DNA of 64,000 bases from Candidatus Nanoarchaeia archaeon (GTDB taxonomy: Archaea; Nanobdellota; Nanobdellia; Pacearchaeales; GW2011-AR1): the NCBI GenBank assembly GCA_041501125.1, contig JBGQNO010000002.1, positions 10,287-74,286 on the forward strand, written 5' to 3'. Position 1 is the first letter of the stretch; every line of letters starts with the position of its first letter. Position numbers and translations under genes: made by a program. The notes under the pieces are model-generated. The model saw only the letters and a list, made by a program, of their open reading frames with translations. It did not search any database and was not told where the DNA came from. Shown here one piece after another: positions 4,649 to 51,705 of this stretch.

Positions 4649-5665
4649 TTAACTCTTCGTTGTCACTTCAATCTTATCCCTGAATACAATCACTGTATGC
4701 TCTGCCTGCGAAACTTTGCCTTTTCCTTTCTCAATCAGCGTTTGATATTGTGAAATTGCTCCTGATTGCTCAAGGAATTTCAAAGCTATCAATGCCTTTG
4801 AAGTGAATTTCTTTACTATCCATCTTGAGCAGAATGGCATTGTTTCATATTCATCCTCAATGAATATAAGTATCTCGCGGGCGAGCTTGTCTCTGACTGG
4901 CTTGTGTTCCTTGAAAGAATAAATTCCACTTGGCTTGCTTTCATAGACTATGCCCTGGCCTGTTGTTGCAAAAGGCTCAATAGCATAAAATCCTTCGCCA
5001 ACTTTCAAGTTATTTCCATTGTCGTAATTTGGAATAGAAACTCCTGAATGCAAAAAATTCTTCTTAACCTCGTGTCCTGTCAGGTTCCTTATCGGCGAGA
5101 ATCCTCTTCCAGTAATTATTTTCTGTACTGCCTCTCCAATCTTTCTTACCTCAACTTCATACTTTATTGTATCAATCGCTTTGTTCAAAGCTTCTTTGCT
5201 TGCCTCAATCAATTTCTTATTCTCTTCACTATCTTCCAAGTCAAGAGAAAATGCAGTATCAGCAATATAGCCATTGACATGAACTCCAATATCAACTTTC
5301 AATAATCCACTTGCCACAGCAGAATCATTATAACCTGGCGTATAGTGCGCAGCAATCTCATTTATTGAAAGATTTACAGGAAATGCAGGTTTGCCATCAA
5401 GCTCCAAAATCTTGTCTTCAATTTTCTCAGCAATGTCCAAAAGCTTCATTCCTGGTTTGATGATTGTCCTGGCATACTCGCTTACCTGCTTGGCAATCTT
5501 GCCAGCTTCCTTGTAACCAAGAATCTCTTCATGGCTGATAATAGTTTCAACAGCGACCTCTTCTTTTTTCTTTTCTTCTTGCTTTATCATCAAATTTCTT
5601 CTTACAGGTTTCACTATCTTACCATCTGACCTTCCTGTTGCCCCGCCATATTGTTTTTCTGTCAT
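4649..5665 (-). CDS. map: methionine aminopeptidase, type 2 (archaeal/eukaryal)
   Basis: Motifs AAHYTP, DIGVHVNGYIADTAFS, LTGHEV, YAIEPFATTG and AEHTVIV. The start overlaps the upstream gene's stop in an ATGA arrangement. Confidence 0.85.
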   Translation of the reverse strand: MTEKQYGGATGRSDGKIVKPVRRNLMIKQEEKKKEEVAVETIISHEEILGYKEAGKIAKQVSEYARTIIKPGMKLLDIAEKIEDKILELDGKPAFPVNLSINEIAAHYTPGYNDSAVASGLLKVDIGVHVNGYIADTAFSLDLEDSEENKKLIEASKEALNKAIDTIKYEVEVRKIGEAVQKIITGRGFSPIRNLTGHEVKKNFLHSGVSIPNYDNGNNLKVGEGFYAIEPFATTGQGIVYESKPSGIYSFKEHKPVRDKLAREILIFIEDEYETMPFCSRWIVKKFTSKALIALKFLEQSGAISQYQTLIEKGKGKVSQAEHTVIVFRDKIEVTTKS

Positions 5666-6111
5666 TTTACTCTCCTCTCTCTAGGAACATAATTTATAAC
5701 CTTTTTATCTTTTACCTTGCCGCATCCAATCAGTTCGCCTTTATTTCCAAGCAAAACCCATTTGTCTTCTGAATCAATTTCAATGTTTTCTCCTCTAAGC
5801 CATTCATCAGCCTGCTTGTCAGAAATATCAATAATATTTTTTGTAGCCATATTCTTGAAGATAAATAATCCATCATGCGAAATCCTGTAGCCATCGCTTT
5901 CTTCTCTCAAAATATACAAGCCAGGAAGCTCTATTCTTACATCATATGATAGTTTTGCAATCTCGTCGCGTGTCATTGAGCCAGAGAAAGCTCGTATCTT
6001 TCCTTTTCCAGCCATAACCAAAAGCCACGGAAGCTCTGTAATTCCAAACTTCTCGTTTAAGTCCTCAATTATTTTCTTTTTCTCGCCTGAGTTTAAAATT
6101 TTTATTTGCAT
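5662..6111 (-). CDS. NIP7-like pre-PUA/PUA domain RNA-binding protein
   Basis: PUA-like C-terminus WVLLGNKGELIGCGKVKDKKVINYVPRERR. It lies in an operon between the m5C methyltransferase and map. I prefer the start at M18 (6111, GAGG about 9 nt upstream); the ORF extends to 6162. Confidence 0.5.
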   Translation of the reverse strand: MQIKILNSGEKKKIIEDLNEKFGITELPWLLVMAGKGKIRAFSGSMTRDEIAKLSYDVRIELPGLYILREESDGYRISHDGLFIFKNMATKNIIDISDKQADEWLRGENIEIDSEDKWVLLGNKGELIGCGKVKDKKVINYVPRERRVK

Positions 6112-6183
6112 GTTAATACCCTCTTTGTCATTAATGTAAAAACACTTGAGACTCTTGAACAACCATTCATCTGCTTAATGTTG

Positions 6184-6231
6184 ATTGCCCCTGTAACCTT
6201 GCAAGGTGAAACGTTATTAATATTAATTCTC
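6184..6231 (+). repeat. intergenic hairpin/AT-palindrome element, copy 1
   Basis: ATTGCCCCTGTAACCTTGCAAGGTGAAACGTTATTAATATTAATTCTC, with hairpin ACCTT-GC-AAGGT. Confidence 0.6.
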
Positions 6232-6235
6232 CATC

Positions 6236-7198
6236 TCATTTTCCTTCTCCTGACATTTTTTTAAACCTTGCAACAAAAAACCCTTCAGTGTTATTGTCCT
6301 GCGGAAAAATCCTGCATGCTTTAGTTACTTGCTCATCAAACTTTTCGCCTTCCCACTCTGTAACTCCCTGCCTGCATTTTACAGGCAAGCCAGCATCTTG
6401 GATTGTCAACCCCATTTCTTTTATCAGAAAGTCTACATTCTTTTCATTTTCTTCAGGAGCGTACGTGCATGTTGAATAAACAAGTTCGCCACCATCCTTC
6501 AGCAAAGGAACAGCAGAAGCAATAAATTTTCTCTGCATTCTTCCAAGTTTTTTAATCATTTTGTAATTCCACATAATAAATGTCTTTGGCGAACCTCTTG
6601 TAGTTCCTTCTCCACTGCACGGAACATCAAGCAAAATCTTGTCAAACTTTATGCCAAGTTTTAAAAATTTCTCGCATAATATAACAGCATCATGCCTTGC
6701 CACAAGCACATTCATTGCACCGCACCTCTCTATATTGCTTGCAAGTATGCTTATTCTTGAAATATCATTGTCATTCGCAATAATTGTTCCTTTGTTCTCC
6801 ATTAAAGCAGCCATCTGAGTAGTCTTGGAGCCAGGAGCAGCAAATAAATCAAGAACAAGCTCTCCTTGTTTTGGTTTTAAAGCAAGCAAAGGTAGCATGC
6901 TTGAAAATTCTTGTATGTAATATAATCCTGTTAAATGCTCTCGTGCTCTTCCAAGCTCGCCAGGTTCAAGCTCGCTTGTAACTTGCATGACTTCAGGATG
7001 CTGGTCCCATGGTTGTTCAATTTTCCATCCTTTCTCCTCAAGTCTCTTTCTCAAGTTGAAAGGAGAAATCTTCAAAGTGTTGCAACGAATTGCATTTACA
7101 GGTTTAATGTGGATAATCTCGTTAAACCTGGCAAAATCTTTCTCATTGGACATCAATTTCCTCATTCTTTCCAAAAAAAGTGGTTTTGGTTCTATCAT
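6236..7198 (-). CDS. NOL1/NOP2/Sun-family RNA cytosine-C5 methyltransferase
   Basis: SAM motif DLFAAPGSKTT, catalytic DVPCSGEGT, and a second Cys motif YSTCT. Confidence 0.85.
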   Translation of the reverse strand: MIEPKPLFLERMRKLMSNEKDFARFNEIIHIKPVNAIRCNTLKISPFNLRKRLEEKGWKIEQPWDQHPEVMQVTSELEPGELGRAREHLTGLYYIQEFSSMLPLLALKPKQGELVLDLFAAPGSKTTQMAALMENKGTIIANDNDISRISILASNIERCGAMNVLVARHDAVILCEKFLKLGIKFDKILLDVPCSGEGTTRGSPKTFIMWNYKMIKKLGRMQRKFIASAVPLLKDGGELVYSTCTYAPEENEKNVDFLIKEMGLTIQDAGLPVKCRQGVTEWEGEKFDEQVTKACRIFPQDNNTEGFFVARFKKMSGEGK

Positions 7199-10919: not shown

Positions 10920-11948
10920 ATGGGTCTGCAGATAGGTGACATAGTTCCAAGGAAAGCTATAGAATTCTCGCAAATGAAAGGCAGGATACTTGCTGTAGAT
11001 GCTTCTAATATAATCTATCAGTTTCTTTCAACAATACGGCAGCCTGATGGCACTCCGCTGCAAGACAAGAAAGGCAATATAACCTCTCATTTGTCAGGAT
11101 TGTTCTATAGAAATATCGCACTTCTGGAAGAAGGCTTAAAATTAATTTATGTTTTTGATGGCGAGATGCCTGCTCTTAAAAGAAAAACAATTGAAAAAAG
11201 GCTTGAAGTTAAAGCAGAAGCAAGAGCAAAGTATGAAGAAGCAATGTCAGAAGAGGATATTAAAAAAATGAAAAGATATTCACAGCAGCTCGCGAGATTG
11301 ACTCCTGAAATTAAAAAAGAAAGCATGGAACTCCTTGAAGCTCTTGGAATCCAAGTTGTACAGGCACCAAGCGAAGCAGAAGCCCAGGCATCATATATGG
11401 CAAGAAAACAAGTTGCTTGGGCATGCGCAAGCCAGGACTATGACAGCCTTCTGTTCGGAACTCCGCGTCTTTTGCAAAACCTTACGCTTGCAAGAAAGCG
11501 CAAAACAGTTTCTGGGTTTGTCTATATCTCGCCAGAAATGATAGAACTTGAACATGTTCTGAATTCTCTGCAGATAAACCTCGACCAGTTGATATGCCTG
11601 GGAATTTTGTCAGGCACTGATTATAATCCAGGCGGAGTCAGAGGCATAGGTCCAAAGAAAGCGCTTGAACTTGTCAGAAAATACAAAGAGCCTGTCTTGA
11701 TATTCAGGAGTGTTGAAGATAAAATCAAGGCACAGGAACAAGAAGGAAAAAGTTTTGACTGGCAGGAAATCTTCCCGCTGTTCAAAAAGCCAGATGTAAA
11801 AGATATTAAAGTTGAGTTTCCAAAATTAAATGAAGCCAAAGTAAAAAAAATCCTGATTTCGCATGATTTTTCAGCAGAGCGAATTGACTCTGCGCTTAGC
11901 AAGTTGAATGCAGCAAGAGAACAGCAAAAGCAGAAGACTTTGTTTTAA
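10920..11948 (+). CDS. fen: flap endonuclease 1
   Basis: N-terminal XPG-N motifs (ILAVDASNIIYQFLSTIRQPDGTPL), the XPG-I region, and a helix-3-turn-helix motif GTDYNPGGVRGIGPKKA. Confidence 0.92.
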   Translation: MGLQIGDIVPRKAIEFSQMKGRILAVDASNIIYQFLSTIRQPDGTPLQDKKGNITSHLSGLFYRNIALLEEGLKLIYVFDGEMPALKRKTIEKRLEVKAEARAKYEEAMSEEDIKKMKRYSQQLARLTPEIKKESMELLEALGIQVVQAPSEAEAQASYMARKQVAWACASQDYDSLLFGTPRLLQNLTLARKRKTVSGFVYISPEMIELEHVLNSLQINLDQLICLGILSGTDYNPGGVRGIGPKKALELVRKYKEPVLIFRSVEDKIKAQEQEGKSFDWQEIFPLFKKPDVKDIKVEFPKLNEAKVKKILISHDFSAERIDSALSKLNAAREQQKQKTLF

Positions 11949-11960
11949 ATTACTGCTACT

Positions 11961-11995
11961 TAATCCCCCAGACAAATGTTTTAACATTAATGCTT
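11961..11995 (+). repeat. intergenic element, partial copy 5
   Basis: TAATCCCCCAGACAAATGTTTTAACATTAATGCTT shares the GTTTTAACATTAAT half with copy 2. Confidence 0.35.
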
Positions 11996-12042
11996 AAAAT
12001 CCAAACAGCAATCTTTATAAATGTTATAACATTGTTATAACA

Positions 12043-18482: not shown

Positions 18483-19258
18483 ACATTCCCCATTCTTACG
18501 ACACAATAGGAGACATAGTCATTCTTAAATTTCCAGAAGATACCAAAACTACGGACAAAAAGAAAGTTGCTAAGCAAATACTAAAAGAACGCTCAAGCGT
18601 CAAGACTGTCTTGGAAAAAACAGAGAAAGTTAAAGGTCGCCTGAGGACACTAACAACAAAATTCTTAGCTGGAGAAAACAAAAAAGAAACAATACACCAT
18701 GAATCAGGCTGCTCATTTAAATTAAATATTGATACTTGCTATTTCTCACCACGCCTTTCAAACGAAAGGCTCGAGATTGCGCGGGAAATAAAAACTTCAG
18801 ACAAGGTATTGATAATGTTTTCAGGAGTTGCTCCATTCACAATAGTTCTTGCAAAAATAGCAAAGCCAAAAAGAGTTGTAAGCATCGAACTTGGAAAAGA
18901 ATGCACAAAATATGCAAAAGAAAATCTAAAGTTGAACAGGCTGCTGGACATGAATATTGAAATCCTGCAGGGAGATGTAAAGAAAGTCGTGCCAAAGTTA
19001 AAAGAAAAGTTCGACAAGATAGTTATGCCGCGCCCGCAATTAAAAGAATCATTCCTGCATGAAGCATTTCATGCTGCAAAAAAAGGCACAATCATTTTCT
19101 ATTATGACTTTGAGAAAGAGCCTGGCATAATTCTTGACAAGATTCAAGAACAGGCAACAAAAGAAAAAAGAAAAGTTGAAATCTTGAAAGTCAAGAAAGC
19201 TGGCGAAATCGCGCCTTACAAATATCGTTGGCGAATTGATTTTAAAGTGCTAAATTAA
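18479..19258 (+). CDS. trm5: tRNA (guanine37-N1)-methyltransferase, Trm5/Taw22-like
   Basis: N-terminus IPHSYDTIGDIVILKFPE and a Met-10+ like class I methyltransferase core. I chose the start at M15 (18479), which overlaps the HEPN stop in an ATGA arrangement. Confidence 0.7.
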   Translation: MNIPHSYDTIGDIVILKFPEDTKTTDKKKVAKQILKERSSVKTVLEKTEKVKGRLRTLTTKFLAGENKKETIHHESGCSFKLNIDTCYFSPRLSNERLEIAREIKTSDKVLIMFSGVAPFTIVLAKIAKPKRVVSIELGKECTKYAKENLKLNRLLDMNIEILQGDVKKVVPKLKEKFDKIVMPRPQLKESFLHEAFHAAKKGTIIFYYDFEKEPGIILDKIQEQATKEKRKVEILKVKKAGEIAPYKYRWRIDFKVLN

Positions 19259-19285
19259 ATTTTAATGCTGTAAAGCTTGATGATG

Positions 19286-19333
19286 ATTGCCCGTGTTCAC
19301 CCCGATGGGTAAAGTGTTTTAACATTAATTCTC
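19286..19333 (+). repeat. intergenic hairpin/AT-palindrome element, copy 2
   Basis: ATTGCCCGTGTTCACCCCGATGGGTAAAGTGTTTTAACATTAATTCTC, with hairpin ACCC-CGAT-GGGT. Confidence 0.6.
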
Positions 19334-19341
19334 AAAAAAAA
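19334..19341 (-). terminator. oligo-T tract downstream of the hydrolase gene
   Basis: A run of eight A on the + strand gives T8 on the minus strand, 10 nt after the stop at 19351. Confidence 0.4.
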
Positions 19342-19350
19342 TCTTCTCAG

Positions 19351-20139
19351 CTAAGAATTTGCAGACAAATGTTTTCTGAAAAACTTTTCAACAGGCTCTT
19401 TCATTTTTTCTATTGGTATGGCATGCCCTTCTGATTCGTAATGCAAAAGGTGTTCTGGCTTGCCACCGAGCATTTCATGATAAACTCCCATTGATTTTGC
19501 AGATGCTCTGTCATCCAATGCTCCGACAAGAGTCATGACATTCATACCATTTGGCTTAAAATTTGCCAGCTCCTGCAAACCATCAATTTTCTCAATTTCA
19601 TCAAGGCATCTTATTGGAATAACTCTTGTTATCCCGCGCTGGGCATCATAAACAGAAGTTATTGGAAATTCCTCAATCAATTTCTTGTTTCTTGCATTTA
19701 CAAGTGCATTTCTTAATTCTTCTGTTCCAAAATATTTCCAGCCGACAAGCGGCGAGACAGAAACATAGCATCTTGGAGAAATTACGTTTGTTGCTCCATT
19801 AGAAAGTCCGTAAGCGAAAATTGCTCCGCTGATACTTGAAGCAATAACACCAACTCTTGAAGTATCAACATTTGGATGTTGTGATAATTCTTCAAAAGCC
19901 TCTTTCATATTCTGCATGTATCGGCCTAAACTGAAATCGCAGACAACTTTGCTTCCAGAATCCTCAATACCATCATACATCATGCCCATACACACCATTT
20001 CTTTGGATAAATCCTCAAATATCATGTCTATCCTGCCGCCTTCTAAACCTTTTACAAATCCAGGCATTCCAAGAATAGCTGGTCTTTTTTCATGCCCTAA
20101 ATTTCCAGAGGTGTACAGTTCTGTTCTTACCATTGGCAT
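19351..20139 (-). CDS. alpha/beta-fold hydrolase
   Basis: Nucleophile-elbow-like GVIASSISGA, acid-like GALDDRA and His-like SEGHAI, at alpha/beta-hydrolase spacing. Confidence 0.55.
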   Translation of the reverse strand: MPMVRTELYTSGNLGHEKRPAILGMPGFVKGLEGGRIDMIFEDLSKEMVCMGMMYDGIEDSGSKVVCDFSLGRYMQNMKEAFEELSQHPNVDTSRVGVIASSISGAIFAYGLSNGATNVISPRCYVSVSPLVGWKYFGTEELRNALVNARNKKLIEEFPITSVYDAQRGITRVIPIRCLDEIEKIDGLQELANFKPNGMNVMTLVGALDDRASAKSMGVYHEMLGGKPEHLLHYESEGHAIPIEKMKEPVEKFFRKHLSANS

Positions 20140-21483: not shown

Positions 21484-21557
21484 AATCTAAATCATACTTT
21501 ATTATATATAAACTTGTTGAAATAATGGTAAAAATTCAAATTAAAATGAAACAATTG

Positions 21558-21598
21558 TGACTATAACCCCGCGAGGTGAAGCGTTTTAATATTAATTC
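21558..21598 (+). repeat. intergenic hairpin/AT-palindrome element, copy 3
   Basis: TGACTATAACCCCGCGAGGTGAAGCGTTTTAATATTAATTC. Confidence 0.5.
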
Positions 21599-21648
21599 AA
21601 ACACATTAAAAATGTTTCAAACAAAACATTTTTAAACAACTCGCTTCT

Positions 21649-22638
21649 TTGAAAATGATGGCTTTAGACAAACAAGAAGCAGAGGAAAATAACCTCACAG
21701 AAAGAGTAAGAAAAAATCCGTGGATGATTTCAACAATAGTTCTTGGAATAATTGCACTGTTGCTTGTTACATTTGTTATGCCTAAATCACTTACAGGCAA
21801 TGCAATCTCTGAGAAGGATGCAAGCGATAAAATCATGACATATGTTAATTCAGTTGCAAGCGCACCAGTCACATTTGTAGCATCTAAGGACTTGGGAAAT
21901 TTCTATGAAGTGCAAGTATTATACCAGAACCAGACACTTCCATTATATATCTCAAAGGATGGACAATACTGGACATCTGTATTGCAGGCAATGACACCAG
22001 CACAGACACAACCAGCAGCTCAAACAAAGGAAGTTCCTAAAACAGCAAAGCCTGTTGTAGAACTTTTTGTAATGAGCTTTTGCCCTTATGGTGTAAAAGC
22101 TGAAAGTAATATTCTTCCAGTGATTGAATTGCTTAAAAACAAAATTGATTTTAAAATAAGATTTATAGTCAGTGTAGCAGGTGACACAATAAATGATGTT
22201 AATTCCTTACATGGAATAAATGAAGCAAAAGAAGATGCAAGACAGCTTATAATAATGAAATACTACCCAGACAAATACTACAGTTATCTTAAGGAATTTG
22301 ATGCAAACTGCTATCCAGTAGCTTCAGATTCTGCAAAGCTTGAAACATGCTGGAAAGCGACAGCAGGCAAGTATGGAATTGACGCAAACAAAATAGAAAC
22401 AGCAGCATATGGACAAGAAGGAATTGCATTGTTAAAAACAGAAGAAGCAGAAACAGTCAAATACAAAGCCTCCGGAAGCCCTACACTTGTAATAAATGGT
22501 GTCCAAAGCAGTGCAATATATTCAGGAACATCTGCAACACAAGCTGCAATATGCAATGCATTCAGCACAGCACCTTCAGAATGTGGCACAGCAGTGCAAT
22601 CAAATTCTACTACTACAACTTCTGCAAGCTGTGGCTAA
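21649..22638 (+). CDS. membrane-anchored thioredoxin-fold (DsbA-like) protein
   Basis: N-terminal transmembrane segment (ISTIVLGIIALLLVTFV) and a thioredoxin-like block ELFVMSFCPYGVKAE, which has CPYG rather than CPYC. The C-terminus is Thr/Ser-rich and ends with a Cys. Confidence 0.45.
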   Translation: MKMMALDKQEAEENNLTERVRKNPWMISTIVLGIIALLLVTFVMPKSLTGNAISEKDASDKIMTYVNSVASAPVTFVASKDLGNFYEVQVLYQNQTLPLYISKDGQYWTSVLQAMTPAQTQPAAQTKEVPKTAKPVVELFVMSFCPYGVKAESNILPVIELLKNKIDFKIRFIVSVAGDTINDVNSLHGINEAKEDARQLIIMKYYPDKYYSYLKEFDANCYPVASDSAKLETCWKATAGKYGIDANKIETAAYGQEGIALLKTEEAETVKYKASGSPTLVINGVQSSAIYSGTSATQAAICNAFSTAPSECGTAVQSNSTTTTSASCG

Positions 22639-25428: not shown

Positions 25429-25508
25429 AACATTAAACCATTTCATGTTCTTATAAATATTATTATGCTTTACAAGAAACAAGAATTGTCTCGCAAACAA
25501 AAGAATAA

Positions 25509-25556
25509 ACTGCCCGTGTGCACCCCGATGGGTAAATCCTTAAATTATTAATTAAA
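25509..25556 (+). repeat. intergenic hairpin/AT-palindrome element, copy 4
   Basis: ACTGCCCGTGTGCACCCCGATGGGTAAATCCTTAAATTATTAATTAAA. Confidence 0.55.
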
Positions 25557-40495: not shown

Positions 40496-40524
40496 ACCTT
40501 GCGAAAAGGTAACTTTAAATAATA
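40496..40524 (+). repeat. intergenic hairpin/AT-box element, variant copy 6 (likely endA promoter)
   Basis: ACCTTGCGAAAAGGT followed by AACTTTAAATAATA, ending 13 nt before the endA ATG. Confidence 0.45.
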
Positions 40525-40536
40525 CCTCGGCTTTTA

Positions 40537-41073
40537 ATGAAAATGGCAAGAAAAGAAAAGAAAATCAAGGCAATTTTCACAGGCGAGACAGTTTATAGCA
40601 ATACAAAAGAAGCAGTAAACTTATTTGGAAACTCTCGCATGGGAGAAATGGTTGAAGGCAAAATCCAATACTCAATGCAGGAAGCCATGCTTCTCGTAGA
40701 CGAAGGCAAGATGGATGTCTATGAAAAATCCAAAAAATTAAGCCAGAAAAAGTTCCTTGAAAAATGCAAGGACATGGACAAGAAATTCTCAACAAAATAC
40801 AGTGTTTTCAAAGACCTCAGGAAAAGAGGATATATTGTAAAAACAGCATTAAAATTCGGCGCAGACTTCCGTGTTTATGAAAAGGGCAAGCAGCCTGGCC
40901 AGGAGCATGCAAAATGGATTCTTTATCCAGTCAAGGAAACCGATACATTGACATGGCATGACTTCTCTGCCAAGAATCGTGTTGCGCATTCAACAAAAAA
41001 GAATCTTCTGATAGCAATTGTTGATGACGAAGGCGACATAACATACTATGAAGTCGCCTGGACACGACCATAG
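40537..41073 (+). CDS. endA: tRNA-splicing endonuclease
   Basis: YSVFKDLRKRGYIVKTALKFGADFRVY and HAKWILYPV, with the conserved catalytic-domain layout in 178 aa. Confidence 0.88.
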   Translation: MKMARKEKKIKAIFTGETVYSNTKEAVNLFGNSRMGEMVEGKIQYSMQEAMLLVDEGKMDVYEKSKKLSQKKFLEKCKDMDKKFSTKYSVFKDLRKRGYIVKTALKFGADFRVYEKGKQPGQEHAKWILYPVKETDTLTWHDFSAKNRVAHSTKKNLLIAIVDDEGDITYYEVAWTRP

Positions 41074-51620: not shown

Positions 51621-51658
51621 TTGAACTCTCACACATAATTGCCTAAACAAAAGAATAG

Positions 51659-51705
51659 ATTGCCCCAAGTTACCCAAGGGAAAATCGTTTCAGTATTAAT
51701 TCATC
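51659..51705 (+). repeat. intergenic hairpin/AT-box element, copy 7
   Basis: ATTGCCCCAAGTTACCCAAGGGAAAATCGTTTCAGTATTAATTCATC. Confidence 0.5.

Follow-up and report, generated by a model that had tools for sequence, protein, structure and literature searches.

The genome of this DPANN archaeon harbors a short intergenic repeat that is best explained, with a probability of roughly 0.6, as a lineage-specific, non-coding, non-autonomous mosaic element resembling REPs, BIMEs, and MITEs. As part of the same reading, and with the same probability, its copies would be tolerated behind genes and would turn over by insertion, loss, and between-copy exchange. The repeat is of the REP/MITE general kind but is not a member of either class. 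That a strongly reduced 625-kb genome keeps about 45 copies, some 90% of them in a single polarity and with a core conserved across species, points either to a mobility process that is active and strand specific or to some use in the host.

The repeat was noticed in a window of 64,000 nucleotides (positions 10287-74286 of contig C2) in an assembly of 16 contigs (designated C1, C2, etc.) with a G+C content of 37.5% and an estimated completeness of 88%. A nhmmer profile built from five clear copies gave 44 matches genome-wide at E<0.1 in the first round and about 46 copies at E<1e-3 in the second, the latter figure counting C13:15589 and C5:70 separately, though these are probably one locus split by the assembly. 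Specifically, the end of C13 (15518-15660) is identical to the start of C5 (1-125) across a repeat copy, so the two "copies" may be one locus, and the assembly probably broke at this copy; the left part of the same copy is shared by C5:8792-8921. The covariance model R1, built from 42 copies, finds 43 in the whole genome and, with filters off, six in the window, all on the + strand; the E-values of the five solid window copies range from 2e-11 to 9e-7. A fixed-spacing pattern has 4 matches in the window versus 0.28 expected, and none of 100 shuffled sequences reaches 4. All of the approximately 45 copies are intergenic. Their density is uneven around the genome mean of one copy per 14 kb, with zero copies in C1:52200-133272 (81 kb), C10 (27.6 kb), and C14 (9.8 kb).

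The initial annotation listed seven members of the family in the window. Six of these sites are retained, five as solid copies and one (11961-11995) as a decayed copy, and the seventh (40496-40524, +) is rejected, as it gives no match to R1 even at E 10. The coordinates of the retained copies and of their parts are listed in Table 1.

Table 1. Repeat copies in the window (window coordinates) and the nested stem-loop found elsewhere in the genome (contig coordinates)
Feature	Position	Strand	Sequence	R1 match or remark
Copy 1, long form	6130-6229	+		R1 part 6171-6231, 65.7 bits, E 2e-11
Copy 1, left inverted AT box	6130-6144		ATTAATGTAAAAACA	
Copy 1, module A	6145-6176		CTTGAGACTCTTGAACAACCATTCATCTGC	
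Copy 1, module B	6177-6195		TTAATGTTGATTGCCCCTGT	
Copy 1, hairpin	6196-6207		ACCTTGCAAGGT	
Copy 1, GAAA	6208-6211		GAAA	
Copy 1, right AT box	6213-6229			
Decayed copy	11939-11995	+		29.1 bits, E 9e-4
Copy 2, short form	19273-19333	+		63.3 bits
Copy 2, hairpin	19299-19310		ACCCCGATGGGT	
Copy 2, AT box	19316-19331			
Copy 3, degenerate 5' half	21541-21600	+		49.2 bits
Copy 3, hairpin	21566-21577		ACCCCGCGAGGT	one C.A mismatch
Copy 3, AT box	21583-21598			
Copy 4	25496-25556	+		50.6 bits
Copy 4, hairpin	25522-25533		ACCCCGATGGGT	
Copy 4, AT box	25539-25554			variant
Copy 5	51646-51704	+		43.5 bits
Copy 5, hairpin	51673-51680		CCCAAGGG	damaged, 2-nt loop deletion
Copy 5, AT box	51687-51702			
66-nt stem-loop	C5:27699-27764, C4:34798-34863		CTTTGTTTGC...GCAAATCAAAG	z -2.2 and -3.3

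Copy 1 is flanked by two - strand genes, with the stop of ORF 6236-7198 located 7 nt to its right and the start of ORF 5662-6111 located 19 nt to its left. Copy 2 occupies a convergent gap between a + ORF ending at 19258 and a - ORF ending at 19351, and copy 5 likewise lies between convergent genes. Copy 3 is found in a divergent gap, and copy 4 has the stop of a small - strand L41e-like ORF about 20 nt to its right. The decayed copy, which overlaps the stop of the + ORF 10920-11948, keeps the GCTACTTA module and the AT box and has lost the 3' arm of its hairpin.

The basic unit of the repeat, about 55 to 60 nt long, consists of a 5' module, a 12-nt hairpin or palindrome ACCY-N4-RGGT, the RAAA motif, and an AT box of the form (C)GTTTTAACATTAAT(TC). 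The 5' module comes in three kinds, ..GATGAGGATTGCYMC (also written ..GCTTGATGAGGATTGCYMC), ..AAAACATGCTGCCCC, and ..AAGAATAGATTGCCCC. Approximately half of the copies bear a second, different unit on the left in inverted orientation, with (AGA)ATTAATGYAWAAAC followed by GAGACGCTTAAGCAACCATTCATYTGC. The resulting long form spans about 95 to 120 nt and has inverted AT-rich ends of 14 to 17 bp; (AGA)ATTAATGYWAAAAC is present at both termini of about 25 long copies, and short copies are without the left end. The consensus proposed in the initial annotation is seen at the sites listed there but covers only the right half of this element; the full length of copy 1 (about 100 nt) and its inverted second AT box at 6130-6144 had been missed.

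The inner modules are interchangeable or absent among copies, and solo left units occur. At C4:8198-8342, two right units are arranged head to head between convergent genes, with each AT box against a stop. In two copies (C5:27665 and C4:34769), a 66-nt stem-loop is nested between the hairpin and the AT box; the same stem-loop trails tRNA-Val at 61518-61582 of the window and behaves as a movable module. A split-tRNA or leader reading of these two copies was rejected, the other sequence that they run into being this nested tRNA-trailer stem-loop, and an rRNA leader was rejected because the rRNA genes sit on contig C8. The similarity to integron attC sites was also discarded, since the inverted cores are ordered GTWAAAA...TTTTWAC, the reverse of R''(RYYYAAC)...R'(GTTRRRY). 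A potential stem between modules A and B (GCAACC/GGATTGC) displays no covariation by eye. No target-site duplication is visible outside the inverted ends; one might be hidden inside the palindromic ATTAAT.

The orientation of the copies relates to the DNA strand and not to the neighboring gene. The initial annotation reported that all copies lie on the + strand, irrespective of the direction of the flanking genes. The second part of this statement is borne out, and the first is true for contig C2; genome-wide, the copies occupy both strands (all 4 of those on C3 are on the - strand), and their orientation follows the sign of the GC skew. Copy strand and raw GC skew go together by contig. Because raw skew has a transcription component, it was replaced by a corrected skew, calculated as the mean of the third-position skews of + and - genes within at most 10 kb on either side of a copy. 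The comparison with GC skew, which the initial annotation had proposed, is positive with this measure: 38 of the 44 copies have their top strand on the C-rich strand (p 9e-7), and the contigs with mixed orientation (C7 and C8) have near-zero corrected skew. That the polarity relates to the strand rather than to the neighbor follows from three observations: 14 of the 16 copies in convergent gaps, where neighbors give no cue, obey the skew rule; the 14:5 split of copies between the two kinds of co-directional gaps fits the 129:76 background; and genes (61% co-oriented) and tRNAs (17 of 29) are far less polar than the copies. On the short contigs of relatives, the count is 18 versus 8 by raw skew, which is uninformative there because it reflects local gene direction.

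An origin-like region follows the sole orc1/cdc6 gene (C1:49452-50654), the entire locus spanning C1:49452-51161. Within this region (C1:50.7-50.9 kb), ORB-like repeats in inverted orientation (TTTCCATGAGAAATGAGGG and TTCCACACGAAACCATGGGGAG) lie on both sides of 40 nt of pure A/T. Neither raw nor corrected GC skew switches sign at this locus; the link between skew and replication direction therefore stays an assumption. The repeat itself was considered as an Orc1-binding ORB-like site and rejected: the cdc6-adjacent ORBs read TTCCA-N3-GAAA..GGGG, and only a subfamily of the repeat shares GAACAGGGG.

The copies favor gaps that hold gene 3' ends. Gaps were classified by the strands of the left and right neighbor genes in the frame of the element, on the nine contigs with clear skew, against background gaps of at least 30 nt; the gene set comprised 701 simple ORF-based calls (91% coding), with 32 tRNA genes added. 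Convergent gaps (+,-) hold 13 of 34 copies and account for 36 of 321 background gaps, a 3.4-fold enrichment (38% versus 11%), whereas divergent gaps (-,+) hold only 2 of 34 copies versus 80 of 321 background gaps (25%; chi-square of about 28 with 3 d.f. over all four classes). Among the co-directional gaps, those of the (-,-) kind hold 14 of 34 copies (129 of 321 in the background) and those of the (+,+) kind 5 of 34 (76 of 321). The boxes also adjoin tRNA 3' trailers, as at C1:52077. The general gene-end signal in this genome is a longer T-rich run.

Gene ends are also the site of another conserved sequence, the 18-mer GGCTCGCTGATGCTCGCC, made up of a pair of GCTCGC direct repeats with a spacing of one helical turn. 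Five sites in the genome carry it letter-perfect, and two more sites match 16 to 17 of the 18 letters, none of them in the window (C5:8792-8809, C4:25336-25353, C3:18985-19002, C15:4348-4365, C6:17221-17238, C13:15518-15534, and C1:52004-52019). This 18-mer sits after the ends of tRNA and protein-coding genes, often flanking the repeat, and it is present in five loci from sister species (L025, L026, L027, L032, and L045) in which the genes are only about 78% identical. Such conservation suggests that GGCTCGCTGATGCTCGCC is a predicted protein-binding or RNA-processing site.

The distribution of the repeat is narrow. A search with R1 of 40 genomes from further genera of the same family and order gives no match, and a 20-base pattern has only four chance matches among 185,579 species genomes. 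In metagenomes, this pattern identifies 29 stretches, 18 of them with true copies. The 17 loci that are syntenic with the genome (designated L0xx) all come from the sample series Ga0315288/289/291 and show 70 to 93% nucleotide identity; such synteny at this identity places them in sister species.

Comparison with these loci shows that copies turn over between sister species by gain, by loss, and by the exchange of individual modules. About 10 sites are filled both in the genome and in relatives, and five are filled in relatives and empty here, with junctions blurred by 10 to 25% divergence. For example, L048:6639 is filled and the corresponding C7:12328-12374 is empty, the gene there retaining a T-rich terminator of its own. 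Sites that are shared often differ in hairpin subtype or inner module: C2:16460 has ACCTTGCAAGGT where L031 has ACCCCGATGGGT, C7:27604 has GATGAGGATTGCTAC where L035 has AACAAAACATGCTGCGCC, and the ortholog of window copy 4 in L039, about 93% identical, has a 21-nt module inserted. The conservation of some orthologous copies equals or exceeds that of the neighboring coding DNA; at C8:14987, the copy is 94 to 96% identical to that in L026, whereas the flanks are 60 to 82% identical. This conservation is as compatible with a role in the host, or with a constraint imposed by recognition, as it is with selfish spread.

Copy-bearing gaps are often much larger in the relatives and contain accessory genes, with breakpoints inside the element copies. 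The repeat marks gaps where sister species gained such genes. The loci orthologous to C8:14880-15100 (L026:2486-3306 and L032:894-6252) encode a toxin-antitoxin-type pair of a HEPN (DUF86-like) protein and a minimal nucleotidyltransferase, and one of the two additionally encodes two paralogous Cys-rich secreted proteins of 600 and 744 aa; here, this gap holds a single element copy only. The promoter and 3' flank of neighboring genes are duplicated along with the cassettes in the sister species.

Dispersed REP/BIME-type repeats are textbook features of bacterial genomes; no description of such repeats in DPANN archaea was found in full-text searches. The present family shares with REPs, BIMEs, and REPINs a short, hairpin-forming, intergenic sequence in tens of copies that is lineage specific and has conserved stem positions. 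Bacterial REPs are situated behind genes, in gaps between convergent or unidirectional ORFs (PMC3733652), and the copies described here have the same placement, behind genes in convergent and co-directional gaps. The mosaics of two inverted units with linkers are similar to the Y/Z BIMEs of Escherichia coli (PMC6006769). However, the palindrome here is 12 nt long with a 4-bp stem, compared to 20 to 40 nt in REPs, and the GTAG/CGTC tag is missing; CTAC upstream of the stem is found only in the GCTACTTAC subfamily (about 8 copies), the other copies having CCCCTGT or CCACC. Further differences are the AT-rich terminal inverted boxes, the very strong strand polarity, the archaeal host, and the lack of a cognate RAYT (Y1 HUH) gene in the 88%-complete genome. 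In a survey of complete genomes, archaea hold only IS200-type Y1 enzymes (PMC6006769).

With IS200/IS605 elements and PATEs, the repeat shares hairpin-bearing ends. The orientation of IS200/IS605 elements is tied to the replication strand, with insertion into the lagging-strand template (PMC6006769), and the orientation of the repeat follows the corrected skew, whose link to replication direction is an assumption. Those elements have no terminal inverted repeats, unlike the long form described here; moreover, there is no Y1 or TnpB gene in the genome, the ends of a relative's IS are unrelated, and no conserved target tetranucleotide is identified.

The resemblance to MITEs, such as the Correia elements of Neisseria and the MITEs of Sulfolobus and Haloquadratum, lies in the length of about 100 nt, the non-coding nature, the terminal inverted repeats, the dispersed intergenic location that can adjoin gene starts or ends, and the presence or absence of copies between relatives. 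The repeat differs from MITEs in showing no target-site duplication and, in searches for two transposase families, no matching autonomous IS, in having many copies that are single short units without the left end, and in its exchangeable inner modules. Classical DDE-type MITEs are not expected to show such strand polarity. The repeat is not filed as a member of either class because several REP-defining tests fail and there is no target duplication as in MITEs. As test material, the family offers defined top- and bottom-strand oligonucleotides, filled and empty orthologous sites, and contigs from sister species.

Under the favored reading of a non-autonomous mobile mosaic, we infer that the copies would spread or convert through a strand-specific, replication-coupled process, probably involving single-stranded DNA, as with IS200/IS605 and REP elements, and would persist where they are least harmful. 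Some copies may incidentally supply gene-end signals or, as with the left box of copy 1 ahead of ORF 5662-6111, a TATA box. The enzyme would be either missing from the 88%-complete assembly or of no known kind. A six-frame search of this assembly for Y1 HUH transposases (PF01797) gives no match at E 0.1, control genomes being positive in the same search, and TnpB is likewise absent from it; Y1 HUH transposases are encoded in 11 of 41 related genomes. The ends of a relative's IS200/IS605 element are unrelated in sequence to the repeat, and searches for two transposase families reveal no autonomous IS with matching ends in the genome or in the 29 metagenome loci. Points against this reading are the divergence between empty and filled sites, which is too great for clean junctions to be seen, the lack of a visible target-site duplication, and the age of the copies, whose mean column identity is 66% even though specific positions are more than 90% conserved.

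Alternatively, the repeat could be a double-stranded DNA cis element selected by the host, with a putative protein-binding site behind genes that would comprise the palindrome ACCY-N4-RGGT together with A/T tracts and ATTAAT. It might act as a bidirectional terminator or insulator or as a polar chromosome signal for replication or segregation, and a mobile origin may coexist with such a role. We consider this unlikely, although a number of observations point that way. Conservation exceeds 90% at the stem, at AAA, and at TTAAT, whereas the loop and spacers are free to vary; the stem is kept as sequence rather than by covariation; and at several orthologous sites, the copy is no less conserved than the genes beside it. 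Many copies fill the entire gap, so that the first T4 run after the stop lies inside the element; in the head-to-head pair at C4:8198-8342, both convergent genes have a separate copy, the AT box of which adjoins the stop of the respective gene. The polarity is also much stronger than that of genes. However, copies are found at only about 45 of some 700 genes, and the T-rich gene-end run is present where the element is missing, as at the empty C7 site, or precedes the element, as in the window, where the - ORF ending at 19351 has its own T8 run between its stop and copy 2 (19334-19350). Furthermore, the element is absent from 40 related genera, orthologous copies are missing or replaced by other subtypes, and an 81-kb stretch of C1 contains no copies at all.

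A broader and rather improbable proposal is that these sequences represent an undescribed DPANN class of strand-polar mosaic repeats, which would either spread as single strands in a replication-coupled manner by means of an unrecognizable enzyme or serve as polar signals for replication, segregation, or repair. If so, module swapping and the adjacent insertions of accessory genes would make the repeats the main sites of gene-cassette exchange in these minimal genomes.

The hairpin brings up the question of RNA. It has a 4-bp stem and a 4-nt loop (12 nt in all), plus one optional outer T-A pair. The initial annotation held that pairing is kept while the sequence changes and took this as a sign of selection on structure. 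Pairing is indeed kept: 88% of the cells pair in the alignment of 42 copies, and the stem is 95% Watson-Crick in 72 copies, including those from relatives. The change in sequence, by contrast, is nearly confined to one position. Three pairs are almost invariant (A-T in 65, C-G in 67, and C-G in 69 of the 72 copies), and the innermost pair alone shows two-sided changes (CG in 24 and UA in 15 of the 42 copies; C-G in 46 and T-A in 22 of the 72), a covariation that tracks two subfamilies. Given three near-invariant pairs and covariation at the innermost pair only, the stem is conserved mainly as sequence. Of the wobble pairs, 3 fit the top strand and 6 fit the bottom strand; the pair data are compatible with folding of either strand, with or without involvement of an RNA, and selection on structure is weakly supported.

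These data bear on the idea of a family of small RNA genes, in which a structured RNA of about 55 to 100 nt would be transcribed from a promoter in one AT box and end at a T-run terminator in the other. Such genes are very unlikely, although the conserved core is bracketed by AT-rich boxes and a three-way fold can be drawn for the long form. Of five full copies that were folded, one is more stable than shuffled sequences (z -2.9), but the remaining four are not (z +0.4 to -1.2); the 66-nt stem-loop nested in two copies has z -2.2 and -3.3. The single covarying pair, the wobbles without strand preference, and the exchangeable or missing inner modules also argue against an RNA gene. In the window, Rfam 15 at the gathering threshold detects only tRNAs, with no family matching the repeat. 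A search by eye for C/D-box, H/ACA, hammerhead, and SECIS elements yields UGAUGA-like and GAAA strings with the partner boxes missing. Finally, the AT boxes match the TATA motif of the genome poorly.

The least likely reading is the one proposed in the initial annotation, in which the AT box is an outward-firing BRE/TATA promoter and the hairpin a regulator site, giving rise to mRNAs for + strand genes and to antisense RNAs into the 3' ends of - strand genes. A 12-nt promoter motif learned from 265 upstream windows of the genome has the consensus AATTTATAAACA with the core TTTAWAAA (wwTTTAWAAA), and the genome's own TATA motif TTTATAAA outscores the AT box by far. The median score of the AT box, 3.1 bits outward, is weakly TATA-like compared to 1.3 bits for random DNA, but it is far below the 7.1 bits of promoter windows and no better than the 4.0 bits that the box scores inward; k-mer counts agree with this scoring. 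For 35 of the 45 copies, the right-hand neighbor of the AT box is a gene oriented toward the box, whose stop is usually 0 to 30 nt away, and the divergent gaps, which do bear promoters, are those depleted of copies. Where genes start near copies, a separate canonical TATA box lies between the element and the ATG in nearly all cases: gene 12043, next after the decayed copy, has its own TTTATAAA box at 12013-12022, and the + gene starting near 21664, to the right of copy 3, has its own TTTTTAAA box at 21630-21637. Only one exception was found: ORF 5662-6111 has no AT-rich or TATA-like box ahead of its ATG other than the left box of copy 1, which lies 19 nt upstream. The low motif score, the stop-facing boxes, and the separate TATA boxes of the neighbors leave the promoter reading unsupported, although antisense transcripts may start from the AT box. 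As a warning to annotators, an AT-rich box in these genomes should not be taken for a promoter by default.

A canonical promoter box is found next to the rejected seventh site. The sequence at 40496-40524 is an unrelated 5-bp hairpin (ACCTT GCGAA AAGGT) located directly upstream of a canonical TTTAAATA box, which lies about 27 nt before the ATG of the gene starting near 40545. This hairpin may be a regulator site of that single gene.
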